A stretch of DNA of 55,846 nucleotides from positions 1-55,846 of the forward strand of contig PWLF01000170.1 of assembly GCA_003559475.1 (NCBI GenBank), read 5' to 3'. A model generated the notes under the pieces. The model ran no database searches, was not told where the DNA came from, and was given only the letters and a program-made list of their open reading frames with translations. A program made the translations under genes and the position numbers. Origin of the DNA: Bacteroidales bacterium (GTDB taxonomy: Bacteria > Bacteroidota > Bacteroidia > Bacteroidales > UBA7960). The stretch's first letter is position 1, and each line of letters begins with the position of its first letter. This document shows, piece by piece, positions 5,956 through 46,339 of this stretch.

Positions 5956-6630
5956 ATGGCAGGTGATTTTCAAGAAATATTTGTTTTTAGTATAACCTTG
6001 CAAGATGTAATAGGTAATATTTTAGTTGCTATGATTTGTGGTATAGCCATAGCAGTATTATATAAATATACATACAGAGGATTAAATTATTCGACAGCAT
6101 TTACTATTTCTTTGATTATGCTTACAATGATCACAGCAATTGTTATAATGGTAATTGGAAATAATCTCGCACGTGCTTTCGGTCTTGTCGGTGCAATGTC
6201 AATAATAAGATTCAGAACAGCGGTTAAAGACGCTTCCGATATTATGTTTATATTCTTTGCTCTTACTGTAGGATTGGCATCGGGCGTTAAACTTTATTCC
6301 ATTGCAATTTTTGGAACTATTATTATAAGTATTGTATATCTTATTATTATCAGATTTAATTTTGCAATGCCGCAAAGTCGCGAATTTCTTATGCAGATAG
6401 TCGCAAACGAACAACAATTGCCGGAAAATCCTTTTCATGAAGCATTTAAGAAGCATTGTAAAAAACAAAAAATTATAAATGTAAAAACTATTGGTGAGGA
6501 GGATAAAAATATGATGGAGTTTTCATATTATATAAAACTGAAAAATGAGGATAATAGCAAAGAGTTAATCTCTGAAATTAAAAAAATACATGGAGTTAAT
6601 CAGGTTAACTTGTTTTTTGATGAAACATAA
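5956..6630 (+). CDS. DUF4956-family membrane protein (usual partner of bacterial VTC-domain proteins)
   Basis: Multi-TM N-terminal half carrying the family signature FGLVGAMSIIRFRTAVKDASDIMFIFFAL.VGLASG. Confidence 0.75.
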   Translation: MAGDFQEIFVFSITLQDVIGNILVAMICGIAIAVLYKYTYRGLNYSTAFTISLIMLTMITAIVIMVIGNNLARAFGLVGAMSIIRFRTAVKDASDIMFIFFALTVGLASGVKLYSIAIFGTIIISIVYLIIIRFNFAMPQSREFLMQIVANEQQLPENPFHEAFKKHCKKQKIINVKTIGEEDKNMMEFSYYIKLKNEDNSKELISEIKKIHGVNQVNLFFDET

Positions 6631-6666: not shown

Positions 6667-8388
6667 ATGACTATAAAATTGAGTGAACAAGAGCAGTTTA
6701 GACGTAATGCACTGGAAGAGTTAAGAAAACTGGATATTGACCCTTATCCCCCCGAAGGCTTTGATGTTAACACTACAACAAAGGAGATACACGATCTTTA
6801 CTCTGAAAATAAAAATAATTTTGATGATGTGAGTTTAGCAGGTCGCTTGATGAGTAGAAGAATAATGGGTAGCGCCTCGTTTGCTGAAATTCAAGACTCT
6901 AAAGGGCGAATTCAGCTATATTTTAATAGAGATGAAATATGTCCTACTGATGATAAAAAAATGTATAACGACGTATTTAAGAAGTTGTTGGACATTGGCG
7001 ATATAATAGGGGTAAAAGGATTCGTTTTTAAAACAAAAATGGGAGAAACAACTATACATGTCAAAGAGTTTAAGTTGCTTACTAAATCTCTTCGACCATT
7101 GCCTATTGTTAAAGAAAAGGATGGTAAAACTTATGATGCTTTTACCGATGCTGAACAAAGATACAGGCAAAGATATGTTGATTTGATTGTTAATCCTGAT
7201 GTTAGAGAAGTTTTTAAGAAAAGGGCTGCTATGATTAAAAGTATAAGAACTTTTCTTGAAGATATTGGGTGCCTTGAAGTGGAAACCCCTGTTTTGCAAC
7301 CTATATACGGTGGAGCAGCTGCAAAACCATTCAAAACGCACCATAATAAACTTGATACTACGCTTTATTTAAGAATAGCTAATGAACTGTATCTTAAAAG
7401 ATTAATTGTAGGAGGATATGACGGCGTTTTTGAGTTTGCAAAAGACTTTCGTAATGAAGGAATGAGTCGCTTCCATAACCCCGAATTTACTCAAATGGAA
7501 GTTTATGTTGCCTACAAAGATTATAACTGGATGATGGATATATTTGAAAAGATGATTGAAAAAGTTGCTCTTGACCTACATAACTCTACAGTTGTTCAGG
7601 TAGGAGATAAAAAAATAGACTTTAAAAGGCCTTGGAAAAGATTCACTATGTATGAAGCTATTAAGCACTTTACAGGAAAGGATATCTCAAATATGAGTGA
7701 TAAAGAATTGAATCTTTTTGCCAAAGATATTGGTGTTGAAACTGATGAATCCATGGGAAGAGGAAAAATAATTGATGAAATATTTGGAGATAAATGCGAG
7801 CCTAATCTAATCCAGCCTACTTTTATTACAGATTATCCTATAGAAATGTCTCCTCTTGCAAAAAAACACAGGTCTGAACCGGGTTTGGTAGAAAGATTTG
7901 AAGTAATTTGTAACGGTAAAGAAATATCAAACTCTTTTACAGAGCTTAATGATCCAATAGATCAACGAATGCGGTTTGAAGAACAACTTGAACTAGGGAA
8001 AAGAGGCGATCAGGAAGCAATGGTTTTAGACGAGGACTTTCTTAAAGCAATTGAGTTTGGTATGCCTCCAACTGCCGGACTTGGGCTTGGAATAGACAGA
8101 TTAGCAATGATAATGACTAACAGTGAGTCTATTCAGGACGTGTTATTTTTCCCGCAAATGAAACCGGAAAAGGAACCTGTTAATGAGTGTGAAAAATTTG
8201 AAAAAGCAGGAATCCCAAAACAATGGGCAAAATTATTAGTAGAATTGGGATATGAGCTAAATCAGGAGTTTAAAAATGAGAACCCAAATAAAATTTTTAA
8301 TGACCTTTGTAAAATTAGAAAGAAAGCAAAACTTGATGTTTCTGCTCCAAACAGTAATGAAATAAAGCAATGGCAGGATAACATTTAA
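6667..8388 (+). CDS. lysS: Lysine--tRNA ligase, class II, with the Bacteroidota-type C-terminal extension
   Basis: OB-fold and class II core motifs are present ([42 protein letters not shown]). The ORF track starts at a TTG at 6637. The ATG at 6667 ([12 protein letters not shown]) is the more likely start. Confidence 0.95.
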
Positions 8389-8418
8389 GTACAAGATAAT
8401 AATCTATAATATAATATT

Positions 8419-9948
8419 ATGTATGTTTTAGGTTCAATAATTAAAAGGGCTATAAAAATGCGCGGCAAAATGCCGGATATGTTTAAGTATAAAAACCCTT
8501 ACAGAACACAAAAAAAAGAACTGAAAAAATTATTAAAGAAAGCTGTTAATACTTCGTTTGGTGAATACTATGGTTTTGATAAAATTTTAAAAAGAAAAAA
8601 TCCTGTAGCAGAATTTCAAAAAAAAGTGCCTGTTCATGATTATAATAAAATTTTTAGAAATTGGTGGTATAGAACATTAAATGGAGAACCTTATGTTTGT
8701 TGGCCCGGTAGGGTTAAGTATTTTGCCCTGAGTTCAGGAACGTCAGAAGCATCAAGCAAGCAAATCCCTATAACCGGAGATATGCTTAAAGCAATAAAAA
8801 AAACATCAGTAAATCAGATTTTTTCTTTAGCTCGCTATGATTTTTCTCGTAATTTTTACGAAAAAGGCATATTGATGTTAGGTGGTAGTACACATTTAAA
8901 CTATAACGGGACTTATTATGAAGGAGACCTTTCGGGTATAACAGCAAAAAATATCCCTTTTTGGTTTCAGCATTTTTATAAACCCGGAAAAAGAATAGCA
9001 AAAGAAAGAGATTGGCCTACAAAATTAGATGAAATAGTAAAAAAGGCTAAATCATGGGATCTCGGTGTTATATGTGGTGTGCCTGCATGGTGGCAAATAC
9101 TGATTGAAAAAATAATTGATTATTATAAAGTTGAAAATATCCATCAGATATGGCCGAATTTAAGTATTTTTGTACATGGAGGCGTATCTTTTGGACCTTA
9201 TGAAAATGGTTTTAAAAAGTTGCTTGGTAAGCCATTAACTTATATTGAAACTTACCTTGCATCAGAGGGGTTTATAGCATTTCAAAATAGACCAAATACT
9301 AATAGTATGCAACTTGTGCTTAATAATGGGATATTTATGGAATTTGTTCCATTTAATGAAAAAAACTTTGATGATGAGGGTGAAATTAAACCAAATGCAG
9401 AAATTCTTACTATTGACCAAGTTGAAGAAGGAGTTGATTATGCTCTATTAATAAGTACTTGTGCAGGGGCATGGAGATACTTAATTGGAGATATGATCAA
9501 ATTTACATCTATCGAGTTAAACGAAATTATTATAACAGGAAGAACCAAGCATTTTTTGAATATATGCGGAGAACACTTGTCAGTAGAGAATATGAACATG
9601 GCTATTAAAAGAGTGGAAGAGCAGTTAAAAATTGTAATTAGAGAATTTGCGGTCGCCGGAATAAAACATAACTCTATGTTTGCTCATAAATGGTACATAG
9701 GAACGGATAATGAGATTGATAAAGAACAGGTTAAACAAAAAATTGATGAAAACTTGAAAATTTTAAATGATGACTATAGGGTAGAAAGAATTGCAGCGAT
9801 TAAAGATGTTTTTGTTGAAATTTTGCCTTCAGCAGTTTTCTACGATTACTTGAAATCTATTGGAAAGGAAGGCGGACAAAATAAATTTCCCAGAGTTTTA
9901 AAAAATCATCAATTCAAAGATTGGGAAGAATTTTTAAACAAATTATAA
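8419..9948 (+). CDS. GH3 auxin-responsive-promoter-family (acyl-adenylate-forming) protein
   Basis: N-terminal P..Q...LKKLLKKA.NT.FG..Y.F..I, ALSSGTS, and an overall length of about 500 aa, typical of bacterial GH3 homologues. Confidence 0.75.
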   Translation: MYVLGSIIKRAIKMRGKMPDMFKYKNPYRTQKKELKKLLKKAVNTSFGEYYGFDKILKRKNPVAEFQKKVPVHDYNKIFRNWWYRTLNGEPYVCWPGRVKYFALSSGTSEASSKQIPITGDMLKAIKKTSVNQIFSLARYDFSRNFYEKGILMLGGSTHLNYNGTYYEGDLSGITAKNIPFWFQHFYKPGKRIAKERDWPTKLDEIVKKAKSWDLGVICGVPAWWQILIEKIIDYYKVENIHQIWPNLSIFVHGGVSFGPYENGFKKLLGKPLTYIETYLASEGFIAFQNRPNTNSMQLVLNNGIFMEFVPFNEKNFDDEGEIKPNAEILTIDQVEEGVDYALLISTCAGAWRYLIGDMIKFTSIELNEIIITGRTKHFLNICGEHLSVENMNMAIKRVEEQLKIVIREFAVAGIKHNSMFAHKWYIGTDNEIDKEQVKQKIDENLKILNDDYRVERIAAIKDVFVEILPSAVFYDYLKSIGKEGGQNKFPRVLKNHQFKDWEEFLNKL

Positions 9949-19817: not shown

Positions 19818-20161
19818 TGACAAATTTAAAAAAAGGTATAAAAACAATTAGTTTGGATGAGTTTTGCGATTTAGCAAATAAACAAGGACTTAATAAATTC
19901 TTTACTTCAAAGGAAATTTCTGATTATGGCAAAGAAAAAAAATTAAAAAGTCTGGCAGCCAGATATTTGATAAAGAAATATATTATTAGTAATTATAAAA
20001 ACCACGTAGATTATAAAGATATCGAAATCTTAAATAAAACAAATGGCAAGCCAATAATTAATACCAAATTTGATGATATAAAGAAAAATATTATGTTCAG
20101 TATATCTCATACAAGAGAAAGGGCAACGGTATTAATAGTGTATAAACAATTACGGAATTAG
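19817..20161 (+). CDS. AcpS-type 4'-phosphopantetheinyl-transferase-like protein (possibly degenerate)
   Basis: Size is 114 aa. FT..E.......SLAARY..K, NGKP and SISHT...A follow the AcpS layout. The start overlaps the peptidase stop (TAATG). It ends in TAG. Confidence 0.55.
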   Translation: MTNLKKGIKTISLDEFCDLANKQGLNKFFTSKEISDYGKEKKLKSLAARYLIKKYIISNYKNHVDYKDIEILNKTNGKPIINTKFDDIKKNIMFSISHTRERATVLIVYKQLRN

Positions 20162-24297: not shown

Positions 24298-25395
24298 ATG
24301 AACTATAGAGTTATTGGAATAATGTCAGGAACGTCCCATGATGGATTGGATATTGCGTATTGCGAGTTTGAAAAAAATAGTAGTTCCTTAAAATATAAGA
24401 TGCTAAGTACCCAAACTTTCACTTATCCTGAAGAATGGCTGATTAAACTTAAAGAAGCACCGAAAATGTCTTCGGAAAAACTTATTAAAAATCATTTTGA
24501 ATATGGTCATTTTATTGGGCAAAAAGTATTGGATTTTTTAAAAAATAATAATCTTGAGAAGCCGGATATTATCGCAAGTCATGGGCATACAGTTTTTCAT
24601 CAACCTGAAAATGGCTTTACTTTTCAATTAGGCTGTGGTTCAGCTATTGCTGCTCAAACAAGAACAGTAGTTGTGTCTGATTTTAGGGCTATGAATATTG
24701 CTTTTGGAGGGCAGGGCGCACCGTTAGTGCCGATTGGAGATGAACTTCTTTTTCCGGAGTATCATTTTTGTCTCAATATTGGAGGCTTTATTAACATATC
24801 TTATAAAAATAAAGGGAAAAGAGTAGCTTTTGATGTATGCCCTGCTAATTTTTTAATTAACCATATATCACAAATAAAGCAAAAAGAAATATGTGAGATT
24901 TTAAATGTTAAAAAAGCAGATTTTGATATTGATGGAACTGTTGGAAGGCATGGAAAGGTCTGCGAATCATTGCTTAATGACCTAAACAACATAGAATATT
25001 ATAATAAGAGTTATCCTAAATCTATAGGAGCTGAATGGTTTAATAATATTATTATCCCTATAATTGAAAAATATAAACTCTTGTCAGCAAAAGATATTCT
25101 CAGAACTGTTTATGAGCATATTACGTTTCAACTTAGTAAAGTTGTAAATGATAGTGGCGTGCAAGGTAAAATGCTTATAACAGGAGGAGGAGCAAAAAAT
25201 TTGTTTTTGATGGAATTGCTTAGGAGTCAAACAAACTTAAACATTCAAATACCTAATAATAAAATAGTTGATTATAAAGAGGCTTTGGTCTTTGCTTTAT
25301 TAGGTTTGTTGCGTGTGAACAATGAAAAGAACACATATAAATCAGCTTCCGGAGGAATTGATTGTTCAGGAGTTATTATTTCTAATGGAACTTAA
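24298..25395 (+). CDS. anmK: Anhydro-N-acetylmuramic acid kinase
   Basis: GIMSGTS.DG.D...C.F start, HGHTVFH, GGQGAPLVP and GGGAKN blocks. Confidence 0.9.
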   Translation: MNYRVIGIMSGTSHDGLDIAYCEFEKNSSSLKYKMLSTQTFTYPEEWLIKLKEAPKMSSEKLIKNHFEYGHFIGQKVLDFLKNNNLEKPDIIASHGHTVFHQPENGFTFQLGCGSAIAAQTRTVVVSDFRAMNIAFGGQGAPLVPIGDELLFPEYHFCLNIGGFINISYKNKGKRVAFDVCPANFLINHISQIKQKEICEILNVKKADFDIDGTVGRHGKVCESLLNDLNNIEYYNKSYPKSIGAEWFNNIIIPIIEKYKLLSAKDILRTVYEHITFQLSKVVNDSGVQGKMLITGGGAKNLFLMELLRSQTNLNIQIPNNKIVDYKEALVFALLGLLRVNNEKNTYKSASGGIDCSGVIISNGT

Positions 25396-25397
25396 AA

Positions 25398-26015
25398 CTA
25401 TTTGTTTGCTTTACATAAAGAGATTTTTGGGATTATAAAATCACTGAGTTCTTTAACAAGGGTTTCTATAGAATATTCTTCTGTATTAATTTCAATATCA
25501 GGATTTTCAGGAACTTCATAAGGGGAGTCTATTCCGGTAAAATTTTTTATAAAACCTTTTCTAGCTTTTTCGTATATGCCTTTTTTGTCTCTGGATTCAC
25601 AAGTTTCAAATGATGAATTAACATAAACTTCAATAAAATCATCAGAGCCTATTATATCTTTAGCCAATTGACGAATTTTTTTTGTAGGGCTTATAAAGCT
25701 ACTTATAACTACTATCCCGGCGTTTAAAAACATTTTCGAAATTTCTGCTGCCCTGCGAATATTTTCTTCGCGTCCTTCTAATGAATAATCTAAATCTTTG
25801 TTTAAATTTTTTCTTAAAAAATCTCCATCAAATAATTGTGTGAAAAAACCCATTTCTTGCAATTTTTTATCAAGATTTTTTGCAATCGTTGTTTTCCCTG
25901 AACTTGATAAGCCGGTCATCCAAATAACTTTAGACTTTTGGTTGAAAAACGCTTCTTTCTTCTTTCTTTTGTTTATGTCATCGTTTCTTAATGACTTAAT
26001 TGAACAATTACCCAT
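25398..26015 (-). CDS. cysC: Adenylyl-sulfate (APS) kinase
   Basis: VIWMTGLSSSGKTTIA P-loop, LDGD.LR..L..DL.(F/Y)S...R.ENIRR, and ISP in FISPTKK. Confidence 0.9.
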   Translation of the reverse strand: MGNCSIKSLRNDDINKRKKKEAFFNQKSKVIWMTGLSSSGKTTIAKNLDKKLQEMGFFTQLFDGDFLRKNLNKDLDYSLEGREENIRRAAEISKMFLNAGIVVISSFISPTKKIRQLAKDIIGSDDFIEVYVNSSFETCESRDKKGIYEKARKGFIKNFTGIDSPYEVPENPDIEINTEEYSIETLVKELSDFIIPKISLCKANK

Positions 26016-26147
26016 AGTTTTTAGTTATTTAACTTTATAAGAGTTGATAGTTTTAATAATAAACAAAAGTAGTAAAATTTAGTGTTTATTGTTATTTTAA
26101 ATAAATCCCATGTAATTTTATCATAAAAAAAATTGAAAATTTATTAT

Positions 26148-26155
26148 TACTTTTG
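26148..26155 (+). promoter_or_regulatory. Candidate -7 box (TACTTTTG) for the 26236-35726 gene run
   Basis: Exact TAnnTTTG match about 80 nt upstream of the first ATG on this strand. Confidence 0.35.
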
Positions 26156-26235
26156 TCATCTTAACCTACGCAAAATTTATTAAGTTAAATCATCATTTAT
26201 TTAACAACTAAATAGAGTTTTAATTATAATTTATT

Positions 26236-26370
26236 ATGAAAGAAAAAGACTTATATGTCGATTTTAAACCACAACAAGCTGTTTATTATGTTGAAAAAGA
26301 TGATAGTAGTTTTGGTATGGTTGTTAGTGGCTCTCAATTATCTCATGATTATTTAGATGATTATTATTAG
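26236..26370 (+). CDS. Small ORF (44 aa) with acidic, tyrosine-rich C-terminus. It is either a separate peptide gene or the 5' part of a TAG-interrupted gene continuing into 26443-26715.
   Basis: My translation is MKEKDLYVDFKPQQAVYYVEKDDSSFGMVVSGSQLSHDYLDDYY, then TAG at 26368-26370. It is below the ORF-track length cutoff. It is in the same frame as the next ORF, and the 72 nt between them contain no other stop. Confidence 0.35.
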   Translation: MKEKDLYVDFKPQQAVYYVEKDDSSFGMVVSGSQLSHDYLDDYY

Positions 26371-26442
26371 AAGAAAAGGAATCTTGAAGCTAATCTAAGA
26401 GAAAAAATAGTTAATAATGAAATTAGTCCCGTCTATTATTAT

Positions 26443-26715
26443 ATGACACTGCAAGAAATGGGAGTTGGCGATTTAGCATCTAGAGTTGGGATAAGCAAAA
26501 GGAAATTAAAAAAACATTTTAAACCGGAATATTTTCAAAAGTTATCTTTAAAAGTATTAAAAAAGTATTCGATAATATTTGATATTCCTGTTGTTTCAAT
26601 GTTACAGTTAATGATAATAAAACAAGAAGATAAAGATAAAATAAGTGTTGAGTATTTGAAAAGTGATAATGAAAGTTTTATAATAACAAAAATCGGATTA
26701 AAAAATAATGGATAA
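26443..26715 (+). CDS. Small helix-turn-helix (XRE-like) protein
   Basis: DLASRVGISKRKLKKHF......SLKVLKKYS.IFDIPV resembles an HTH_3-type layout. The stop overlaps the next start (ATGGATAA). Confidence 0.5.
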   Translation: MTLQEMGVGDLASRVGISKRKLKKHFKPEYFQKLSLKVLKKYSIIFDIPVVSMLQLMIIKQEDKDKISVEYLKSDNESFIITKIGLKNNG

Positions 26716-27712
26716 GGTAATAGATTTCGAGCACAATATGGCTGCTCATTGTGAAACAGGTACGCTTACTGCATTACTAAGATATAAGGGCTTTGATATA
26801 ACTGAACCTTTAATTTTCGGTATAGCTAATGGAATCTTTTTTGGTTATCTTGAATCATCAAATTTTCCTTTCCCAATGTTTATTGTTAGAAGTCGCCCAG
26901 GGCAAGTAAGAGAAAATATTTCCCGGCGATTGAATATTAAAATTAATAAGTATAGATTTAGCAATAAAGAAAAAGGAGAAGCAAAACTTGATGAACTAAT
27001 AGGCAAAGGAATACCAACAGCTGCACAAGTTGATTTTTTTTATATGACTTATATGCCGGATTGGCAAAGAGTTCATATAAATGTTCATTTTATTAATATA
27101 ATTGGTAAGCAAGACGGAAAATATATTGTCAGTGATAGCTATTTCCCGAAAAAGAGTGAATTGGATAGCGAAACTATGCGTAAAGCTCGTTGGGCAGGAG
27201 GACACATGTCTCCAAAAGGATTTATATATCATCCGGCAGAAATACCTGAAAATATTGACTTAAAAAAACCTATAGTAAAAGGAATAAAAAGAGCTTGCAG
27301 AAATATGATCGGATTGCCGGTGCCTTTTATTGGAGTTAAAGGGATATATAAATTTGCTAACAAAGTTAAAGAATGGCCTTCTTTGGCAAGAGATACAGAG
27401 CACTTATCTCATGAAATAATGAAAATTAATATTTTATTGGAAGACCAAGGAACAGGTGGAGCAGGATTTAGATTTATGTATGCAACTTTTTTACAACAAG
27501 CTGCGGAAATATTAAATAATAAAGACCTTGACGACATGTCAAAAAGTATGATGGAAAATGGCGATAAATGGAGAGAAATCTCATATTTTGCAGCAAAAAT
27601 TGGTAAAAATCGAGACTTAGGCAAAGATAGACTTGAAGAACTTAGCTGCCTCATTAAAAATAGAGGTGATTATGAAAAAAAAATTTTTAGTGAATTAAAA
27701 AAAATGGTTTAA
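26708..27712 (+). CDS. BtrH_N / DUF4872-type protein (papain-like fold; ACP-dependent acyltransferase or peptidase family)
   Basis: N-terminal F.HNMAAHCETGTLTALLRYKG......LIFG...G.FF.Y is the BtrH N-terminal pattern with the candidate nucleophile Cys. The length of about 330 aa fits the two-domain form. Confidence 0.7.
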   Translation: MDKVIDFEHNMAAHCETGTLTALLRYKGFDITEPLIFGIANGIFFGYLESSNFPFPMFIVRSRPGQVRENISRRLNIKINKYRFSNKEKGEAKLDELIGKGIPTAAQVDFFYMTYMPDWQRVHINVHFINIIGKQDGKYIVSDSYFPKKSELDSETMRKARWAGGHMSPKGFIYHPAEIPENIDLKKPIVKGIKRACRNMIGLPVPFIGVKGIYKFANKVKEWPSLARDTEHLSHEIMKINILLEDQGTGGAGFRFMYATFLQQAAEILNNKDLDDMSKSMMENGDKWREISYFAAKIGKNRDLGKDRLEELSCLIKNRGDYEKKIFSELKKMV

Positions 27713-27752
27713 ATTTGCTTATATTTTCAAAATTTAATACAAGTTTTACAAT

Positions 27753-28043
27753 ATGACAGTAGATGAAAGAAAACAATTAACTCATGAAATAAAACACCTC
27801 ATTATTGAAAAATTAAAAATTACGCATGTTACAGCAGATGAGGTTGATGATGATACACCACTATTTGGAAAAGATAATCCTATGGGGCTAGACTCTATAG
27901 ATGCTATTGAAATAGTCTTAGCATTAAAAGAGAAGTATGACGTAAGACTAGCAGACCAAAATCTTGCAAGAGAAATATTAACTTCCGTTAACTCTATTGC
28001 TGAGTTTCTTGAAAAAGAATTTAATGAAAGAAAAAAATCGTAA
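27753..28043 (+). CDS. Stand-alone acyl/peptidyl carrier protein
   Basis: GLDSIDAIEIVLALKEKYDV holds the DSxD/L phosphopantetheine attachment motif. Size is 96 aa. Confidence 0.85.
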   Translation: MTVDERKQLTHEIKHLIIEKLKITHVTADEVDDDTPLFGKDNPMGLDSIDAIEIVLALKEKYDVRLADQNLAREILTSVNSIAEFLEKEFNERKKS

Positions 28044-28079
28044 TTCAATATATATCCCCCGATTATAGACCTGTTGCGG

Positions 28080-28125
28080 GTTTACTAATATTAAAATGAA
28101 TGGTAATATTAGTAAACTGTTTTTA
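28080..28125 (+). terminator. AT-rich perfect 14-bp hairpin plus T-tract after the carrier-protein gene (terminator or attenuator)
   Basis: GTTTACTAATATTA (28080-28093) pairs with TAATATTAGTAAAC (28104-28117) across a 10-nt loop, then TGTTTTT. Confidence 0.45.
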
Positions 28126-28196
28126 AATATTTTTTTCTAAATAGTTTGTTAGATTAAAGTTTTTTATAAATCAGTTGTTAAATATATCGCATTTAA

Positions 28197-29267
28197 ATGA
28201 ATCACTCGTATTTGCTTATTGGTACTTCTTTTACTAAGTTAATTTCTATTATTGTTAGAAATGGCGGAATATCAATAAATAATATAAACAGGCTTTTATT
28301 TTTGTTTCAAGGAAGTATTTGGTCATCAATTTTTTCTATGATAGAAAAAATCAAATTTGCTAAAAAACTCAAATACTGTTCAGAAGTTATCAATCCAATA
28401 ATAATTGTTGGGCACTGGCGTACGGGTTCTACCTTTTTGCATCAAATCTTATCATTAGATAAACAGTTTGTAACTCCTAGAGTTGTTCAGGTTTCTGTGC
28501 CGGGAAGTTTGCTCGTTTCTGAACCGTATTTCAGGTCTGTAATGAACAGAGTAATGTCAAAGAAAAGACCTATGGATAATGTTGCTCTTGGTCCTGACGA
28601 ACCCCAAGAGGATGAGTATGCACTTTTGAAAATTGCGAAAAACACCCCGCTAGAAAAATTAGTTTTTAAATCGAAAAAAGAAAATTTTTCTGAGGTTTTA
28701 TTGGATATGAATAAAGATTCTTTAAGTAGTAAGCAGTCAGAAAAATTAAAAGTTTTTTTAAAGAAAATATATTATAAAAACCCAGGTATAGTATTGCTGA
28801 AAAATCCATTTCATTCATACCGAATTGAGGAGTTAAAAAAAACGTTTCCTAAAGCTCGATTTATTCATATATATCGTGATCCGGTTAATGTTATCCCTTC
28901 AACTGTAAAAATGTTTAACATTATTGGGAAACAAAACCGGCTTAAAGGCAAATGGGTTAATGAAAATTTATATACTATTACGAAATCTTTTAATCATCTT
29001 TGGAAGTGTCTGAAAAATCAACTCTATTGCTTGTCAAAGAATGATTATATTGAAATTAAATATGAGGAACTTGATAGTGACCCTCAAAAGATAATAAAAA
29101 CAATATATAATCATTTTAATTTAGAATATACTTCTGATTTTGATTCAAAAGTTCAAAACTTTTTATTTAATGTCAAAAATTATAAAAAAAATAAGTTTAG
29201 TTTATCTGCTGAAGAAAAAGATCATATAAAGAAATCATGTAAGGATTTTTTAAACCATTATTATTAG
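28197..29267 (+). CDS. PAPS-dependent sulfotransferase (Sulfotransfer_3-like)
   Basis: 5'-PSB loop IIVGHWRTGSTFLHQIL and 3'-PB-like IHIYRDPVNVIPS. Confidence 0.75.
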   Translation: MNHSYLLIGTSFTKLISIIVRNGGISINNINRLLFLFQGSIWSSIFSMIEKIKFAKKLKYCSEVINPIIIVGHWRTGSTFLHQILSLDKQFVTPRVVQVSVPGSLLVSEPYFRSVMNRVMSKKRPMDNVALGPDEPQEDEYALLKIAKNTPLEKLVFKSKKENFSEVLLDMNKDSLSSKQSEKLKVFLKKIYYKNPGIVLLKNPFHSYRIEELKKTFPKARFIHIYRDPVNVIPSTVKMFNIIGKQNRLKGKWVNENLYTITKSFNHLWKCLKNQLYCLSKNDYIEIKYEELDSDPQKIIKTIYNHFNLEYTSDFDSKVQNFLFNVKNYKKNKFSLSAEEKDHIKKSCKDFLNHYY

Positions 29268-29281
29268 TTAAATTTATAAAA

Positions 29282-30547
29282 ATGAAGTTACGACTTATTT
29301 ATCCGAAATGGGAAAAATTGCAGGAGCAAACTACTTTTAATCTTCCTCCTCATGGTCCGGTTGTTATGGCAGCTGCACTGCCTAAAGACATCGAGGTTGA
29401 GTTTTTTGATGAAAATGTACAGGAGGTTAAATTTGATGAAAATGTTGATCTTGTTGCAATTTCTGTTATGCTTACAGCACAAATTAAAAGGGGATGGCAA
29501 ATTGCTGATAAATACAGGCAAATGGGGGTGAAAGTCATTTTTGGCGGTATTGCCACAATGCTTCATGCTGAAGAAACACTCAATCATGCTGACTCAGTTT
29601 TCCTGGGAGAAGCTGAAGGACGAATGCATGATGTTATTGATGATTTTAAACAAGGTAAGCTGAAAAAAGTATATAATTATTTGCTTAAACATCCGGATAT
29701 AAGTTGTATTGGAACGGCAAGAAGGGAAATTCTTAATCGAGAATATTATTTTCATAAAGGAGTTCAAATGGTTGACCTCGTACATGCTTCAAGAGGCTGT
29801 AGATTTGTTTGTTATCCTTGCTGTGCTAATTTTCTTGGAGGAAAATTATTTAGACCCAGACCTATTGATAAAGTTGTTGAAGAAATGGAAAGTATTGATA
29901 ATAACAGACTTTTTATAGTTGATAATTCTTTAGCGCAAGATACTCAATGGGAAAAAGACTTGTTTAAAGCAATGATACCGCTGAAAAAAAAATGGTGTAG
30001 TCATACTATAGAAGATAAACCTGAAGTGCTCGATCTAGCCGCACAGGCTGGGGCCTGGTATGTTTATCAAGCAATATTCGACACCTCTGATTATATAAAA
30101 GAAAGAGTGAAAAGATACCATGACCACGGAATAATGGTTGAAGGTACAATTTTTCTTGGAATGGATAATCAAACAGAAGATGACATACTTAGACTAATTG
30201 ATTTTCTGTTGGAAATTGAACTTGACCTTGCTGAATTTACCGTGCTAACTCCTTTTAGACATACTAAATCTTATGATGACCTTTTAAGGCAAGGACGTAT
30301 TATTGACAAAAATTGGGATAATTATAATGCAGGAAAAGTCGTTTTTAATCCTAAACACATTAAACCGGAAAGACTTCAAGAACTATATCATTATGCATGG
30401 GATACTTTCTATGAGAAAGAAACGCAAGAACAAAAAATGTTTAAACTAATGCTTAATGTTATTGAAAAAGAAATTAAAGACGGAACATATAAATCAAGAA
30501 GGGATGATTTAGCAGAAAGTAGTTTTGGAAATAAAATAAAGAGATAA
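29282..30547 (+). CDS. B12-binding-domain radical SAM enzyme (class B)
   Basis: N-terminal Rossmann-like cobalamin domain (DLVAISVMLT......A...R..G.KVIFGG) followed by ASRGCRFVCYPC (CxxxCxxC). Confidence 0.85.
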   Translation: MKLRLIYPKWEKLQEQTTFNLPPHGPVVMAAALPKDIEVEFFDENVQEVKFDENVDLVAISVMLTAQIKRGWQIADKYRQMGVKVIFGGIATMLHAEETLNHADSVFLGEAEGRMHDVIDDFKQGKLKKVYNYLLKHPDISCIGTARREILNREYYFHKGVQMVDLVHASRGCRFVCYPCCANFLGGKLFRPRPIDKVVEEMESIDNNRLFIVDNSLAQDTQWEKDLFKAMIPLKKKWCSHTIEDKPEVLDLAAQAGAWYVYQAIFDTSDYIKERVKRYHDHGIMVEGTIFLGMDNQTEDDILRLIDFLLEIELDLAEFTVLTPFRHTKSYDDLLRQGRIIDKNWDNYNAGKVVFNPKHIKPERLQELYHYAWDTFYEKETQEQKMFKLMLNVIEKEIKDGTYKSRRDDLAESSFGNKIKR

Positions 30548-30550
30548 GCT

Positions 30551-30940
30551 ATGAGTAAAAAAGTTAATGATTATGAGCAAAACTATATTGAAGAGATATT
30601 CGATTTTAAAGGATTGTGGGATATGCCATCCAAATGTGGCCTAAAGGTGATCGAAAAAACCGATAAAACAGTCGTTATTGTTACAGACTTATATCATGAA
30701 AATCCAGGGACTTCAATTACTGAATTTTGTACTCAGTTAGCTACAATCATAGCAAAAGAAAAAAATATCAATATTAATAAAATGATATTTATTCAACATA
30801 ATCCGGATCTTGGTTCTAAATATGATTTTTTAGTCGAGTCTTTTGACCTTGTTAAATTTGAAATAGTAAATAATGAATTTCAAAATCCAAAATGGGAAAA
30901 TATCAGTAAAGAAGATGTTGAAAAAATAATTAATGAATAA
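30551..30940 (+). CDS. Hypothetical protein, 129 aa, no family recognised
   Basis: The ORF starts 4 nt after the radical SAM stop, on the same strand. No motif recognised. Confidence 0.45.
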   Translation: MSKKVNDYEQNYIEEIFDFKGLWDMPSKCGLKVIEKTDKTVVIVTDLYHENPGTSITEFCTQLATIIAKEKNININKMIFIQHNPDLGSKYDFLVESFDLVKFEIVNNEFQNPKWENISKEDVEKIINE

Positions 30941-31034
30941 TTGATTTTGTTTTATCACTTTATTATTATTTAGATTAAAAATATTTTAAGTTTTTTTGAT
31001 TTATTTTATTTGTTAGTTAACTTTGCTTTAAAGA

Positions 31035-33392
31035 ATGTTAAAAAAAAGCTTATTTATATTATTCGTTTTGTTTTATTCATTTTGCTTTTATGGTCAGGAA
31101 TCTGTTAAGCAAAATGTTAGAGGGGTTGTAAAGGATAATATAACCGGTCAGCCTTTAAAGAATATTAATATAAAGATTTTTAATGATAATTTTGAAACCG
31201 GTACAACAACAGACAGTCTTGGACTTTTTCTAATTAAAAATATTCCTGTTGGTTATTATAGTATATACTTTTCCTCTGTTGGTTATGAAAGTAAATTTAT
31301 TCAAAGAACAAGGTTGGTAAGTTCACGTGAATTGTATTTAGAAGTAAATATGGATGTTTCTGTTGAAACTCTTGATGAAACGGTTATTTTTTCGTCAGTT
31401 AGGAAAGATCAGCCAAACAATCCCCGTGCTTTGGTTAGTTCAAGGTCGTTTACCCTTGATGAAGCAAATAAATATGCCGGCAGTTATGGAGACCCCTCAA
31501 GAATGGCAATCAATTATGCAGGAGTTTTGCCTGCAAGGGATAATAGAAATGACATAATTATCAGAGGAAATACATCCAATGGTTTGTTATGGAAGCTTGA
31601 TGGTATGGAAATTCCAAACCCTAATCATTTTGGAGCTACCGGATCTACAGGTGGCCCAATAACTATAATAAATAATAATTTGCTCATGACTTCTGATTTT
31701 CATACGGGAGCTTTTCCTGCTCAGTTTAGTAATGCTACCTCAGGAGTGTTTGATCTAAATATGAAATCCGGCAACCCTGATAATTATAATAATTGGGTAC
31801 AACTCGGATGGAACGGATTAGAATTAGGAAGTGAAGGTCCTGTGCCCGGAGATAATAAAATAACTTATGCTACAGCCTATAGATATTCTTTTGTTGATAT
31901 ATTAGCTAAAATGGGGCTAACTCTGCCTGAAAAAGTTAGCTATCAAGATTTCTCTTTGAAAACAAATATACCGGGTACATCTTTAGGAAACTTTGCAATT
32001 ACTGCTATTGGTGGGAAAAGTAGTATAGAATTGCTTGACTCTGATAAACCAACAGACCAATGGTTGTTTGAAAATAATGGAGAAGATGTAAGTAATTCAT
32101 ATAAAATGGGAGCAATTGGGCTTTCTCATAATAAACAAATCGGAGATAATAGTGTATTAAACTCTAACTTGTATGCTACAGGAAATAGAGTAGAGAATGT
32201 TATTGATACTTTTTCCATTGAAAATCCACAACCATTTTTATGGGCACATGAAAAATCCGAAGAGATAAGAACTTCATTAAGTACGGTTTTTAGGCATAGA
32301 TATTCCTCTAATTCCGACTTTTCTTTTGGTGTTTATATTGATAATTTTAACACAAATTTTGTTGATAGTCAGTTTGTAAAAGGAAATTACAGAAATGTTA
32401 TTAACTCTATAGATAGGCAAATGCTTTTATTAAGGAGCTATTCGGATGTTTATTATAGATTAAGTAATGATTTTAGAACTTATTTTGGTGTAAATTTTCT
32501 GCACTTTGATTTTACCGGAGAAAATATTATTGAACCTCGCTTGGGATTAAAGTGGGATATATCCGATAAAAATTCTTTAAGTTATGGTTCAGGGCTACAT
32601 AGTCAAATGCAACCCAGAATGATGTATTTTGTTATGACTGAAGTTGATGGGGACCAACATTACACAAATAAAAACTTAAAGTTTACCAAAAGCTTTCATA
32701 ATGTTATAGGTTATGATCATCTTATAAGTGATGATTTGAGATTAAAACTGGAAGCGTATTATCAATATATTTATGATGCGCCTGTTTCTTATTCTGAACC
32801 GGCATATTCTTTATTGAATTATGGGGCTGAATTTTATGTTGAGCGAATGGATAGTCTTGTAAATGAAGGTGAAGGTCGTAATTATGGTATAGAAGCAACA
32901 TTGGAAAAATTTTGGAGTGATAAATACTTTTTTTTAATAACAGGGTCACTCTTTGATTCAAAATATACGGGCAAAGATGGAGTAGAAAGGAATACAGCAT
33001 TTAATGGAAGATTTGCTGTGAATATGCTGGGAGGCTACGAATTCGTTATGCCGGGAGGGAAAAGATCAATGAATATTGGCTTAAATCTGACTTATGCCGG
33101 AGGAAGACCCTATGTGCCTTATGATATTGAATCCTCATTGGATAATAGAGAGGTTAAGTTGCTTTGGGAAAATGCCTATAGTGTTCAACGTAATAATTAT
33201 AAAAGAGCAAGTATTAGAATTGGATTTAAACATAATTTTGAAAGATTTAATGTTGAAAGCGCTATTGATTTGCAATATAGAACTGATTATACAAGTATAT
33301 ATTTTGACAGATTAGATTTACAAACAGGTGAAATAATAAAAACATACTCAATGGGTTTTTATCCAATGGCAAATGTGAGAATCGAGTTTTAA
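31035..33392 (+). CDS. TonB-dependent-receptor-like outer membrane protein with N-terminal carboxypeptidase-regulatory-like domain
   Basis: Signal peptide. V.G.V.D..TGQPL..I.I (CarbopepD_reg pattern). Plug-like LDE......GDPSR......GV......N...IRG. Long beta-rich C-terminus ending in F. Confidence 0.7.
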   Translation: MLKKSLFILFVLFYSFCFYGQESVKQNVRGVVKDNITGQPLKNINIKIFNDNFETGTTTDSLGLFLIKNIPVGYYSIYFSSVGYESKFIQRTRLVSSRELYLEVNMDVSVETLDETVIFSSVRKDQPNNPRALVSSRSFTLDEANKYAGSYGDPSRMAINYAGVLPARDNRNDIIIRGNTSNGLLWKLDGMEIPNPNHFGATGSTGGPITIINNNLLMTSDFHTGAFPAQFSNATSGVFDLNMKSGNPDNYNNWVQLGWNGLELGSEGPVPGDNKITYATAYRYSFVDILAKMGLTLPEKVSYQDFSLKTNIPGTSLGNFAITAIGGKSSIELLDSDKPTDQWLFENNGEDVSNSYKMGAIGLSHNKQIGDNSVLNSNLYATGNRVENVIDTFSIENPQPFLWAHEKSEEIRTSLSTVFRHRYSSNSDFSFGVYIDNFNTNFVDSQFVKGNYRNVINSIDRQMLLLRSYSDVYYRLSNDFRTYFGVNFLHFDFTGENIIEPRLGLKWDISDKNSLSYGSGLHSQMQPRMMYFVMTEVDGDQHYTNKNLKFTKSFHNVIGYDHLISDDLRLKLEAYYQYIYDAPVSYSEPAYSLLNYGAEFYVERMDSLVNEGEGRNYGIEATLEKFWSDKYFFLITGSLFDSKYTGKDGVERNTAFNGRFAVNMLGGYEFVMPGGKRSMNIGLNLTYAGGRPYVPYDIESSLDNREVKLLWENAYSVQRNNYKRASIRIGFKHNFERFNVESAIDLQYRTDYTSIYFDRLDLQTGEIIKTYSMGFYPMANVRIEF

Positions 33393-33492
33393 TTTTTATA
33401 AAAATTATATTTATATCTATTTTATTATTAATTTTGTTTTGTTTTTATCATAAAAGGAATTAAAAAGCATTGTTTAACTAAAAAAAATTAAA

Positions 33493-34065
33493 ATGAAAAA
33501 ATTATTTTTATTACTCGGTATTGTGCTAATTTTTGCCATAAAAAGTTGTGGCCCGTCTATTCATTTGGTTGAAGGAGACCCTTCAACTATTAAAGGTGAA
33601 GAATTTGTTGAGGTTCAATTTACTTATGATAATATGAGAGTTGGTAATGAGCCTGAAGAGGATTATGTTGCAAGAAGAATTGAGAGTGATGGAGAGGAAT
33701 GGCATGAAGCATGGGTTAATAATCGTGAAAGCCGTTTTGAGCCCAGATTTATTGAAACTTTAAACAGGTATACTGAACCGCAAGGGTTAATTTTTGAAAA
33801 AAATCGTACCGATACAAGGTATATTATGAAAGTTAATACTTATTATACTGAACCCGGGTTTTATGTTGCTGTAAGAAATGCACCGGCTAAAGTTGGATTA
33901 ACGATTAGTTTTGTTGACAGGGATCAACCTGACAATACTCTTGTTAAATTTGATATACCCGAGGTTGAGGGAATAGTTACACCGGATGTCGGAACCAGAA
34001 TTCATTCGGCATATAGCATGGGCGGAAGACTTTTAGGAAGTGAGCTCGCAGGACATATAAGATAA
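33493..34065 (+). CDS. Putative lipoprotein, 190 aa, no family recognised
   Basis: Signal peptide with lipobox-like LIFAIKSCG. Confidence 0.5.
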   Translation: MKKLFLLLGIVLIFAIKSCGPSIHLVEGDPSTIKGEEFVEVQFTYDNMRVGNEPEEDYVARRIESDGEEWHEAWVNNRESRFEPRFIETLNRYTEPQGLIFEKNRTDTRYIMKVNTYYTEPGFYVAVRNAPAKVGLTISFVDRDQPDNTLVKFDIPEVEGIVTPDVGTRIHSAYSMGGRLLGSELAGHIR

Positions 34066-34211
34066 ACGATTTTTTATTCTTGTTTTTAAAGTAAAAAACT
34101 CATAATAACTCTGAGTTTGTTTTAATTTGTGGAGGTTAAATATTAATATGTTTTTAATATTAGTGTAAAGGTTTGTTTCTAAGCAAGCTGTTTTTAGATA
34201 TTGTTAAGAGA

Positions 34212-35726
34212 ATGAAGAAATTATTATTAATAAAACCTGCAGGTGTTTTAAAACATTATTCTACACAAATTGAAGTAGCTAAATTGCTAGGGAAACGAAC
34301 TGGAAGTGTGCCACTTGCTTTGCCTGTGATTGCTTCGATAACTCCTAAAAACTATAAAATAAAAATTATTGATGAAGATGTAAGTTCTTTGCCAAAATGG
34401 TTTAAACCTGACTTGGTTGGGATTACTATGATAACTTCAAATTCTGAAAGAGGATATGAGATTGCAAAAAAATACCGTAAGTTAGGAGCTAAAGTAGTTT
34501 TAGGTGGAGCATATCCCAGCTTTAATATTGAAGAAGGATTAAAATATGCTGATAGTATCATAGTCGGAGAAGCTGAAAACTCCTGGAAAAAATTAATTAA
34601 AGACTTCGAAAAAAAATCTTTAAAGTCAGTATATCGTGCTGAAGAACATATTGAGTTTTCTGAAGCCATTATGCCAAGATGGGATTTGATAGATACAAAA
34701 AAAATGTTTTCAATTCCTGTTCAAGCATCAAGAGGATGCCCTTTTATGTGTGAGTTTTGTCTGACAACTCAAATATATGGAAGAAAGGTTAGGCGAAGAA
34801 AAATAGAGGATGTTATTAATGAAATTAAAAAACTTCCTAAAAAGAATATTCTTTTTGTTGATGAAAATTTAACTATTGATAAAAAATATGCTAAAGAGCT
34901 TTTTCGACAACTAATACCTTTAAAAGTAAGTTGGATTTGCCAAAGTAGTGTTGACGTTGCAGATGATAAAGAGATGCTAAACTTAATGGCGGAAGCAGGG
35001 TGTAGGCATTTAGTAATTGGCTTCGAATCCCTTAAACCTGATAGCTTAAAGGAAACACATAAATTCCAAAATAATCCTGAGAATTATGTTAGAGTAATTG
35101 AAAATATTAATAAAGCAGGGATTCATGTATATGCTTCCTTTATTATTGGTTTTGATGAAGATAAACCTGAAGATTTTGATGTTTTTAGAAAGTTTATTGA
35201 AAATTCTCAGTTGCCGGTATTTAATTTAAGTATTCTAGGTGCTTCAAAAGGAATGGAACTACACAAAAGGCTGGAAAAGGAAAACAGAGTTTTGTGCAAC
35301 CTTAGCAAGAAGTTCTTTGTGGGAGGATATCCTGTTTTAAAATACAAGAATTTTAACAACAAAGATTTTTTTGATAAATACAATGAGATAATTGAGCATT
35401 TGTATTCTTTTTCGCAGATAAGAAAAAGAACAATAAGATTGTTAAAAAAAGGATATTTCTGTAAAGATAGAAACAGTAAAGTTGTTTCTTTATATGAAAA
35501 AATAAGAACGACAATTATTTTGTTTTTTTCTTATAATATTTCAAAAAATAAGGATAAGCGTTTGTTTTTTAAAGAAGTTATTGCTTTGATCAAATCTAAA
35601 AAAGTGTCTGTTGGAGAAGCAGCATCAATATTATTGATTTTTGAAGCTATTACACGGCACATTAAAAAAGATAAAAAGCAAAGAAAGCTATATTATGAAG
35701 AACTTAAAAGGATTGAACTAGATTAG
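34212..35726 (+). CDS. Second B12-binding-domain radical SAM enzyme (class B)
   Basis: DLVGITMITS.....EIAKKYRKLGAKVVLGG followed by ASRGCPFMCEFC. The track start at 34173 is a TTG. MKKLLLIKP at 34212 matches the start of the paralogue at 29282. Confidence 0.85.
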   Translation: MKKLLLIKPAGVLKHYSTQIEVAKLLGKRTGSVPLALPVIASITPKNYKIKIIDEDVSSLPKWFKPDLVGITMITSNSERGYEIAKKYRKLGAKVVLGGAYPSFNIEEGLKYADSIIVGEAENSWKKLIKDFEKKSLKSVYRAEEHIEFSEAIMPRWDLIDTKKMFSIPVQASRGCPFMCEFCLTTQIYGRKVRRRKIEDVINEIKKLPKKNILFVDENLTIDKKYAKELFRQLIPLKVSWICQSSVDVADDKEMLNLMAEAGCRHLVIGFESLKPDSLKETHKFQNNPENYVRVIENINKAGIHVYASFIIGFDEDKPEDFDVFRKFIENSQLPVFNLSILGASKGMELHKRLEKENRVLCNLSKKFFVGGYPVLKYKNFNNKDFFDKYNEIIEHLYSFSQIRKRTIRLLKKGYFCKDRNSKVVSLYEKIRTTIILFFSYNISKNKDKRLFFKEVIALIKSKKVSVGEAASILLIFEAITRHIKKDKKQRKLYYEELKRIELD

Positions 35727-43983: not shown

Positions 43984-44045
43984 GTATTAATTGCCCAATT
44001 TAAACATGTTTGTTGCAAAGTTATAAAGTTTTGAATTTATATTTG
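43984..44045 (+). promoter_or_regulatory. Conserved promoter, copy 1: 23-nt operator-like motif plus -7 box
   Basis: GTATTAATTGCCCAATTTAAACA (43984-44006), then TATATTTG (44038-44045) starting 54 nt after the motif start. The ATG is at 44088. Confidence 0.6.
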
Positions 44046-44087
44046 TTTTTTTATAAAATTAAAATAAAATTATTAAAAATTAAAAAA

Positions 44088-45179
44088 ATGAAATCAAGTA
44101 AAATTATTGCATTTATAATAACAGTTTTTATAATACAAACTGTAGCATTTTCAGAATTATCTATAAGTCCTGATGGTACTGAACCGCATCCGGCTGCTAT
44201 AATAGATTTAATTTCAAATGACAAAGGGGTTCTTTTCCCTCGGATGTCAACAGATGATCGAGAAGAAATAGATACTGAACCTGAAGGAGATTGGGACTCT
44301 GCGGAATCTTTGATTATTTTTAATGAAACTACCAATTGTTTTGAAACCTATCTGTTAGGTTCTTGGCATGAGATGTGGTGTTTAAGCCCTTATATTGAAA
44401 GCCCTTGTAAAGATTATGAAAATGAAGATAGTTCCACAGGCTTTTTATTGGTAGATTCGCGTGATGATGAAGAATACGAATTAATTGAACTTGGCGGCCA
44501 ATGCTGGATGGCAGAAAATTTGGCATATTTGCCTGAAGTTCATAATAATAGTGATTTCGAAACCCAAGGGAATAATCAAGATCCAGGATATGGTGTTTAT
44601 GGTTATAATGGAGATGATGTAAATGATGCAAAGAATCACACGCATTTTCTGAGTATTGGAGATGTGAATGTTTATGAAAATTATGGAGTATTATATAACT
44701 GGTGGGCAGCAATGGGCCAATCAAATGCAACTGGTTGCAATGGAACAGGGGCTCCACCCAATGACGCATGCGATACGCCTGTTCAAGGCGCATGTCCTGA
44801 TGGATGGCACTTACCAAGTGATTATGAGTGGACTACATTAGAAAGGTATATATGCAATGATGCAGATAATGAAGATTGCGATACCAACTTTCCTTATGAT
44901 GAATCTGATACCGGCTATCGAGGCAATGATGAAGGTGATAGGTTGAAATACTCTAATTGGTGTTGGAGTGATCCATGTGCAACTAGCGGTTTTGCAGCTC
45001 GTATGAGTAAATCCAGAAATACAACCGGCACTTTCCCGGATGTTTATACAGGAAGCTGGTGGAGTAGTTCAGGCGATGCTAGTGGATTTTACAGACGCCT
45101 TCGAGATGATTACACTTCAGTTTTTAGGAATGAAGCAGATAAATCTTTCGGCTATAGTGTTAGATGTGTAAGAGATTAA
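44088..45179 (+). CDS. Array member P1: signal peptide plus shared N-module plus FISUMP lectin-like domain (subclass A)
   Basis: MKSSKIIAFIITVFIIQTVAFS/ELSISPDGTEPHPAAIIDLISNDKGVLFPRMST..., GGQCWMAENLAYLPEV, YGVLYNWWAA, CPDGWHLPSDYEW, GYSVRCVRD. The track start at 44010 is a TTG inside the promoter. Confidence 0.8.
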   Translation: MKSSKIIAFIITVFIIQTVAFSELSISPDGTEPHPAAIIDLISNDKGVLFPRMSTDDREEIDTEPEGDWDSAESLIIFNETTNCFETYLLGSWHEMWCLSPYIESPCKDYENEDSSTGFLLVDSRDDEEYELIELGGQCWMAENLAYLPEVHNNSDFETQGNNQDPGYGVYGYNGDDVNDAKNHTHFLSIGDVNVYENYGVLYNWWAAMGQSNATGCNGTGAPPNDACDTPVQGACPDGWHLPSDYEWTTLERYICNDADNEDCDTNFPYDESDTGYRGNDEGDRLKYSNWCWSDPCATSGFAARMSKSRNTTGTFPDVYTGSWWSSSGDASGFYRRLRDDYTSVFRNEADKSFGYSVRCVRD

Positions 45180-45230
45180 TGCGGTACTGATAAAAAATGT
45201 TGCTTATAAGTCAACCATTATTTACAAGTT

Positions 45231-45293
45231 GTATTAATTGTCCAATTTGAACAGAATTATTTGTAAATATTTAAAGTTTTAAACCTATTTTTG
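45231..45293 (+). promoter_or_regulatory. Conserved promoter, copy 2
   Basis: GTATTAATTGTCCAATTTGAACA (45231-45253), then TATTTTTG (45286-45293) starting 55 nt after the motif start. The ATG is at 45323. Confidence 0.6.
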
Positions 45294-45322
45294 CTTTTAT
45301 ACTAAAAAAACACTAATAAATT

Positions 45323-46291: not shown

Positions 46292-46339
46292 TATTAGATT
46301 AAGTATTATAATCCTAAATAACAATTAAAACAAAAAACT

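Follow-up and report, generated by a model that had tools for sequence, protein, structure and literature searches.

A single-base in-frame TAG, confined to one deposited assembly, interrupts a DarG-family gene at the head of a sulfotransferase operon in a Bacteroidales metagenome contig

At position 26236 of contig PWLF01000170.1, from a Bacteroidales bacterium of the UBA7960 lineage (GenBank assembly GCA_003559475.1), a 44-codon open reading frame (ORF) rich in tyrosine and aspartate lies near genes for a sulfotransferase, a papain-fold protein, and an adenosine 5'-phosphosulfate (APS) kinase. All 55,846 nucleotides (nt) of the contig were analyzed and are referred to here as the window. The short ORF ends in TAG and is followed, in the same frame, by an ORF with a predicted helix-turn-helix (HTH) domain. 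The question raised by this locus is whether the short ORF encodes the precursor of a tyrosine-sulfated peptide resembling RaxX of Xanthomonas, as the initial annotation proposed, or whether the two ORFs are the halves of a single gene, which it offered as a competing reading. We find that the region from 26236 to 26715 is almost certainly one gene of 159 codons. The 44-aa (amino acid) ORF is its N-terminal fragment and not an independent peptide gene, and the in-frame TAG stems from one G-to-T change (Glu to stop) seen only in the deposited contig.

The layout described in the initial annotation was recovered from the sequence in full, including its coordinates, the TAG, the stop-free spacer, and the in-frame second ORF, except that the 44-mer contains six tyrosines (positions 7, 17, 18, 39, 43, and 44) and not seven. 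The spacer (26371 to 26442; 72 nt; KKRNLEANLREKIVNNEISPVYYY) has no stop codon, and the ATG at 26443 is in frame, 207 nt downstream of the one at 26236. This absence of stops had also been called unusual, a description that does not hold, as a 24-codon stop-free run has a chance probability of ~0.13 given the base composition of the window (32% GC). By itself the in-frame continuity is thus unremarkable, and it gains significance only from the homology that spans the junction.

A search with the 159-aa read-through translation returned 130 proteins at E <= 0.01, and more than 100 homologues are full length. The full-length homologues are 156 to 170 aa long and cover 96 to 100% of the read-through, the best one with 75% identity and 100% coverage. 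Their alignment is uninterrupted at position 45, a variable column (L, F, Q, T, K, Y, E, W, and others), and residues 1 to 44 of the window protein align with residues 1 to 44 of all homologues, with K2, E3, E20, K21, D23, G27, and D42 being invariant. The tyrosine-rich end of the 44-mer corresponds to YLDD[FY][YW], a conserved internal motif of the family with at least 90% conservation of Y39 and L40, and M70, the start of the second ORF, is likewise at least 90% conserved in the alignment, within the motif SPVYYYM. Codon-45 and synteny counts were made over 70 loci from species-representative genomes. The equivalent of codon 45 is a stop in none of them (Glu in 18, Leu in 12, and Asp in 7). 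Proteins from the complete ORFs at these loci are 128 to 170 aa long. The flexirubin DarG of Sphingobacterium also aligns over the window TAG as one high-scoring segment pair (26266 to 26601). By exact-sequence lookup, the 44-aa and 90-aa products occur only on this 55,846-bp contig, and JGI/IMG and Logan contain a 159-aa protein (P0122) that equals the read-through, with Glu as residue 45. When P0001, the closest homologue that is intact, was modeled with AlphaFold2 (68-sequence alignment; mean predicted local distance difference test [pLDDT] score, 82.5; predicted template modeling [pTM] score, 0.68), codon 45 fell in the middle of a predicted helix (residues 32 to 59), with the block-mean pLDDT climbing around it from 68 (residues 31 to 40) to 95 (residues 51 to 60). 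On the matter of fused or separate homologues, which the initial annotation had singled out, every orthologue proved to be uninterrupted across the junction, and its competing reading holds, in which one nonsense change or sequencing error breaks a gene of ~159 codons; the change is GAG to TAG at 26368.

The DarG-like match is shortened in two metagenome-assembled genomes (MAGs), at 8001 to 8222 of locus L052 (query residues 1 to 74) and 8001 to 8252 of locus L050 (query residues 1 to 84). The assembly behind L052 is of the long-read style (contig name “tig...”), and the DarH gene there is fragmented as well. These shortenings are probably frameshift errors or decay, and codon 45 is unaffected in both.

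Other assemblies of the same population bear directly on the base at 26368. P0122 is encoded by two Logan contigs from salt-lake runs, one from SRR490129 (L001) that equals the window at 6189/6191 bases (99.97%) and one from SRR490128 (L002) that equals it at 3488/3490 (99.94%), and both have G at this position. An ENA contig (L074; ERZ27301263) also has G and is otherwise identical over the 143 bases compared. With this base set aside, the sequences that have G, the JGI protein record included, agree with the window at 99.95 to 100%. Contigs of three runs were compared with the window over its whole length: two salt-lake runs of the same sample (X1 and X2) and an independent 2019 soda-lake run (X3). 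Those of X1 and X2 have G at 26368, with word depths of 10.8 and 8.25. When the two alleles were queried as 61-mers in which every 31-mer word spans the site, the G allele was 100% present in X1 and X2, and the T allele matched no indexed public run. JGI metagenome contigs, scanned for exact matches with any base allowed at the site, gave none; the P0122 contig there is 29 kb long.

As to how the deposited contig came to have T, we lean slightly toward a consensus or base-calling error, which would have arisen in a low-coverage (~10x) metagenome assembly. Eight substitutions separate the window from the same-sample runs (1607, 20449, 25373, 26368, 30154, 49509, 55660, and 55662), the disagreement at 30154 resting on X2 and X3, as X1 has no coverage there. 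X3 sides with the same-sample runs at 1607, 20449, and 30154 and has no coverage at 26368. Each of these eight window-private changes is non-synonymous or nonsense, with no synonymous one; apart from 26368, the residues (window/runs) are T/I, S/L, V/G (in AnmK), F/L (in a radical S-adenosylmethionine [rSAM] enzyme), S/F, A/G, and T/P. Three G-to-T changes (25373, 26368, and 30154) are clustered inside 4.8 kb. At 30154 the window has TTT (Phe) and the runs have TTG (Leu), and this residue of the rSAM enzyme (291) is Leu in 44/44 orthologues. For the AnmK change (V359 in the window; G359 in the runs), alignments to PDB entries end near residue 310. The pattern looks unselected and fits base-calling or consensus errors or very recent mutations, so that either the base-level accuracy of the contig is questionable or the contig represents a slightly deviant strain. 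A pure oxidative-damage signature, in which all private changes would be G-to-T, was rejected, as only three of the eight are of this kind.

A real T is also quite plausible, if not the explanation we favor. The same single gene would then have acquired a recent nonsense mutation in a minority strain, where it would be a fresh pseudogene making at most the 44-aa fragment and possibly an HTH fragment reinitiated at Met70. Several points tell against an error and on the side of such a mutation. The comparison rests on assembled contigs, which lose minority variants, so a real T subpopulation is possible, and assemblers normally report bases that are found in reads. Furthermore, the differences between the window and the runs include ordinary transitions (1607, 20449, and 49509), and X1 and X2 differ from each other at 579, 39873, and 55656; therefore, genuine microdiversity exists in this population. 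Very recent real mutations are also mostly non-synonymous, an excess that established population genetics leads one to expect in near-identical genomes before selection, so this pattern does not tell error from a recent allele. Set against a real T, the base occurs in none of three other assemblies, nor in the JGI protein record or any indexed run, and L291F at an invariant rSAM position, together with the tight cluster of three G-to-T changes, resembles a damage or base-calling artefact more than a viable lineage.

Two further features of the assemblies were seen in the same comparison. In the poly-A run at 45297 to 45303, the window is one A shorter than the contigs of both same-sample runs; this indel at 45303 was considered as a frameshift from poor assembly and rejected, as it is intergenic (between 45179 and 45323) and has no coding effect. 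Some run contigs join distant window positions: one in X2 joins 25058 to 35624, skipping 10,565 nt, with a word depth of 2.75, and others link 33497 to 20024 through four bridging letters, with depths of 13.2 (X1) and 11.5 (X2). These joins are probably short shared words or assembly-graph artefacts.

That the 44-aa ORF encodes a tyrosine-sulfated, secreted peptide is extremely improbable. As proposed, the peptide would be matured by the sulfotransferase and the papain-fold protein, with 3'-phosphoadenosine 5'-phosphosulfate (PAPS) supplied via the APS kinase. The likeness to Xanthomonas RaxX/RaxST/RaxB is superficial and consists of tyrosines flanked by acidic residues (Asp) at the C terminus, a PAPS-type sulfotransferase with a Sulfotransfer_3 domain, and an APS kinase close by; all three neighboring genes named in the initial annotation are indeed present at the positions it gave. 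However, the segment has no stand-alone homologue and is always the N terminus of a 128- to 170-aa protein, and the DYLDDYY motif lies within a helix in the interior of that protein. An independent precursor gene is absent, as is a leader or double-glycine signal, and the region from 26236 to 33392 has no ABC exporter, let alone a peptidase-containing one of the kind found in the RaxX system. The parallel with the rax genes also fails for the two enzymes, since the papain-fold protein is DarH, an acyltransferase paired with an acyl carrier protein (ACP) and not a C39 peptidase-exporter, and the sulfotransferase has no detectable tyrosylprotein sulfotransferase (TPST) relative in the PDB. The linkage of the APS kinase is not conserved, and in relatives the operon sits among flexirubin-type polyketide and fatty-acid genes. 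With orthologues running uninterrupted over the junction, the RaxX-like precursor is refuted, and the acidic tyrosine motif is a conserved helical part inside a cytoplasmic HTH protein of ~157 aa.

It is just as hard to credit that the TAG is read through or recoded (by a suppressor tRNA, pyrrolysine-like insertion, or a reassigned code) to give the 159-aa protein as written: the frame is kept and the next 72 nt lack a stop, but the stop-free run is accounted for by the region being coding sequence, the other assemblies of the same population have GAG, no orthologue has a stop at codon 45, and TAG terminates 6 of the 39 long ORFs in the window, those of the sulfotransferase and APS kinase included, with no other TAG-interrupted gene seen. 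The ORF end at TAG 20159 to 20161, from which the initial annotation had judged a reassigned code unlikely, was verified, and its option of programmed readthrough is unnecessary.

The single intact gene belongs, by sequence, with DarG as a diverged homologue. The NCBIfam models for this group are NF053536 (“DarG family dialkylresorcinol biosynthesis protein”) and NF053545 (“flexirubin biosynthesis protein DarG”). The read-through scores 66.3 bits against DarG_fam (cutoff, 70) and 69.8 bits against flexirubin_DarG (cutoff, 170), and P0001, with 65.6 and 70.5 bits, is also below both cutoffs; the read-through is thus homologous to the DarG models (E about 1e-18) yet outside their curated boundary. 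All 68 aligned homologues match both models (best E value, 1.9e-21). Like DarG, the window protein aligns to model positions 17 to 127 of 131, has 31 to 32% identity to Sphingobacterium DarG, and is encoded directly upstream of, and coupled to, a DarH gene. Unlike DarG, it has an extra C-terminal beta-hairpin of ~30 aa (157 to 159 aa in total versus 129 to 134 aa), and its operon contains an ACP, a sulfotransferase, and a B12-binding rSAM enzyme instead of DarA or DarB. A demonstrated function for any DarG was not found in the literature.

The AlphaFold2 model predicts an N-terminal hairpin, a long helix that carries YLDD[FY][YW], an XRE-type HTH core, and a C-terminal hairpin. The HTH helices span residues 65 to 122, with block-mean pLDDT values of 91 to 96 across the HTH region, and the modeled core has the five helices of an XRE/Cro-like fold. 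In Foldseek searches it matches SinR (3qq6/3zkc), CylR2 (1utx/2xiu), C.AhdI (1y7y), and 434 Cro (2cro), with the central ~60 residues superposing at a root mean square deviation of 1.6 to 2.4 Å and a template modeling score of 0.65 to 0.76 relative to the target. In contrast to XRE domains, the N-terminal hairpin with the long helix and the C-terminal hairpin have no structural match. The window protein matches no Pfam HTH model at E <= 0.1; three homologues (P0022, P0028, and P0099) have precomputed matches to PF13443, PF12844, or PF01381 (HTH_26, HTH_19, and HTH_3), and JGI labels some homologues as XRE-family regulators. A PDB sequence search with the family profile gave only designed repeat proteins (dTor) and weak noise, which were rejected as compositional matches.

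We infer from this model that the intact protein may be the DNA-binding regulator of the pathway encoded by its operon, a role that we prefer because of the predicted XRE fold and a basic conserved helix (SKRKLKKH). Some observations weigh against it. The Foldseek E values for the HTH matches are weak (0.04 or more, with probabilities of 0.93 to 1.0), and the fold is no proof of DNA binding, because the core also matches HTH-like domains of enzymes that do not bind DNA (HppE, HEPD, and MPnS). An accessory role, as a non-DNA-binding partner that binds DarH, is possible.

A conserved operon begins with the DarG-like gene, whose translation is coupled to that of DarH. The stop of the DarG-like gene overlaps the DarH start by 8 nt in the window. 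DarH is next in 67 of the 70 loci, with an overlap in 37 of these 67 and a distance of no more than 50 nt in 61 of them. The order DarG-like protein, DarH, ACP, sulfotransferase, and B12-rSAM enzyme is kept in 41/70 loci, and many of the others end at a contig edge; in 22 loci with enough flanking sequence, a TonB-dependent receptor-like gene closes the conserved order. The APS kinase is no conserved member of the cluster, as a homologue lies within 8 kb in only 1/70 loci (L060). The features of the gene and its neighbors are collected in Table 1.

Table 1. Coordinates of the interrupted gene and of the genes around it in the window
Feature	Coordinates	Strand	Remarks
APS kinase	25398..26015	-	APS_kinase, 3.6e-58; divergent; could supply PAPS
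Whole gene, DarG family, 159 codons plus stop	26236..26715	+	Read-through homology; broken at codon 45 in the deposited record
N-terminal ORF, 44 codons	26236..26370	+	ATG 26236, TAG 26368-26370; translation, MKEKDLYVDFKPQQAVYYVEKDDSSFGMVVSGSQLSHDYLDDYY; fragment of the larger gene
Stop-creating base	26368	+	T (TAG) in the window versus G (GAG, Glu) in other assemblies of the same population
C-terminal ORF, 90 aa, HTH part	26443..26715	+	ATG 26443 encodes Met70, internal and nearly invariant in the family
DarH, BtrH-related acyltransferase (BtrH_N and DUF4872)	26708..27712	+	DarH_acyl, 312.4 bits (cutoff, 300)
Acyl carrier protein	27753..28043	+	PP-binding, 1.4e-08; top NCBIfam match, PRK09184; syntenic in related loci
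PAPS-type sulfotransferase	28197..29267	+	Sulfotransfer_3, 1.2e-31; syntenic
B12-binding radical SAM enzyme	29282..30547	+	Pfam and NCBIfam matches; private base at 30154
Conserved 129-aa protein	30551..30940	+	Syntenic in 36 loci
TonB-dependent receptor-like outer-membrane protein	31035..33392	+	Label from reading of the translated sequence

DarH has no sequence relative in the PDB, and the 129-aa protein matches no Pfam or NCBIfam model. The nearest PDB sequences to the sulfotransferase are 2z6v and 2zq5 only, presumably the mycobacterial sulfotransferases Stf9 and Stf1. Its substrate is most plausibly a small acyl or aryl-polyene molecule or a lipid and not a peptide. The operon would modify an acyl or aryl-polyene intermediate carried on the ACP, with that small molecule as the substrate of the sulfotransferase. 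A literature search found no description of operons of this sulfotransferase and B12-rSAM type, and “DUF4872” appeared in no paper.

The surroundings of the operon in other genomes point to flexirubin-type pigments. Its gene order is found in at least 41 species-level genomes, for the most part of anaerobic Bacteroidales; the carriers are mostly Bacteroidales MAGs, the closest of them from soda-lake sediments, and a few are labeled Chlorobiota, Desulfocapsaceae, and Thiohalospira. In 22 loci, including those of all eight closest relatives, the operon has within 8 kb of it a block of genes for FlxA (a tyrosine ammonia-lyase), FlxB (a reductase), a ketosynthase, and an LpxL-type acyltransferase; this block is directly adjacent in locus L037 (3376 to 14525) (FlxA, 815 bits [cutoff, 700]; FlxB, 395 bits [cutoff, 340]). 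In the Sphingobacterium locus (L068), such a block comes before DarB, DarG, and DarH (634, 184.7, and 497 bits, respectively), with DarG directly before DarH. None of the genes of this block is present in the window, and tblastn with Sphingobacterium DarB and a DarA candidate found no match to darA or darB in its 55.8 kb. In the sulfotransferase-type loci, these queries have only weak (22 to 24%) ketosynthase-like matches. In ~20 other loci, an O-methyltransferase gene is found just upstream of the operon.

Tentatively, and with less confidence than doubt, we propose that the operon encodes a so far undescribed branch that tailors flexirubin-type aryl-polyene pigments. Such a branch would lack the dialkylresorcinol moiety or have another in its place, its product would carry sulfate and possibly C-methyl groups, and the DarG-like HTH protein would serve as its regulator or as an obligatory partner of DarH.

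One locus (L048, from a Thiohalospira sp. MAG) has two DarG/DarH pairs ~7 kb apart (1 to 1010 and 8001 to 9499), with FlxA, FlxB, ketosynthase, and acyltransferase genes lying as a block between them. One pair is nearer the flexirubin type (42 to 52% identity to the Sphingobacterium proteins), and the other is of the sulfotransferase-operon type, suggesting paralogues with distinct functions.

A similar pair is described for the arcuflavin (dialkylresorcinol) cluster of Azoarcus sp. BH72, in which darD, a “conserved hypothetical protein,” lies beside darE, a “BtrH-like peptidase,” near darA and darB (PMC3949708). No function is given there to darD or darE, and the genes called “DarG” and “DarH” in that paper are others (for a PilT-domain protein and a prevent-host-death protein). 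The two-gene module logic is the same, by a comparison of gene descriptions, as the letter names differ from those of NCBIfam; darD and darE are likely the counterparts of NCBIfam DarG and DarH.

Upstream of the gene, ~80 nt before its ATG, the window has TACTTTTG at 26150 to 26160, a promoter-like element of the TAnnTTTG type, which we take to fit the Bacteroidota -7 promoter consensus TAnnTTTG. An alignment of upstream regions shows that close relatives have TTATTAnTAAnTTTTG in common, ~40 nt before their ATG, and reveals no conserved palindrome upstream of the gene in these relatives. One AT-rich 12-nt inverted repeat in the window (26054 to 26094) is no better than chance. A sigma-70 promoter and terminator scan gave 35 matches versus 29.6 expected from shuffled controls, with a consensus that is wrong for Bacteroidota.

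Elsewhere in the window, at 44010 to 47311, three tandem paralogous genes encode proteins of ~320 to 390 aa that have a signal-peptide-like N terminus in common. The motif “PRLT..ER” is conserved among them, another (“...G.SVRC[IV][KR]D”) lies at the C terminus, and the proteins look like a family of lipoprotein paralogues.

In the deposited record, gene callers divide the DarG-like gene into 44-aa and 90-aa products. A small Tyr/Asp-rich ORF beside a sulfotransferase gene mimics the precursor of a ribosomally synthesized and posttranslationally modified peptide, and here a single base in a single low-coverage metagenome assembly has created it. A search with the fused translation, together with independent assemblies of the same reads, is a short check that settles such candidates. 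For the family, the result means that the DarG/DarH pair, named so far only by its association with flexirubin and dialkylresorcinol biosynthesis, also heads a widespread operon with a sulfotransferase and a B12-binding rSAM enzyme.

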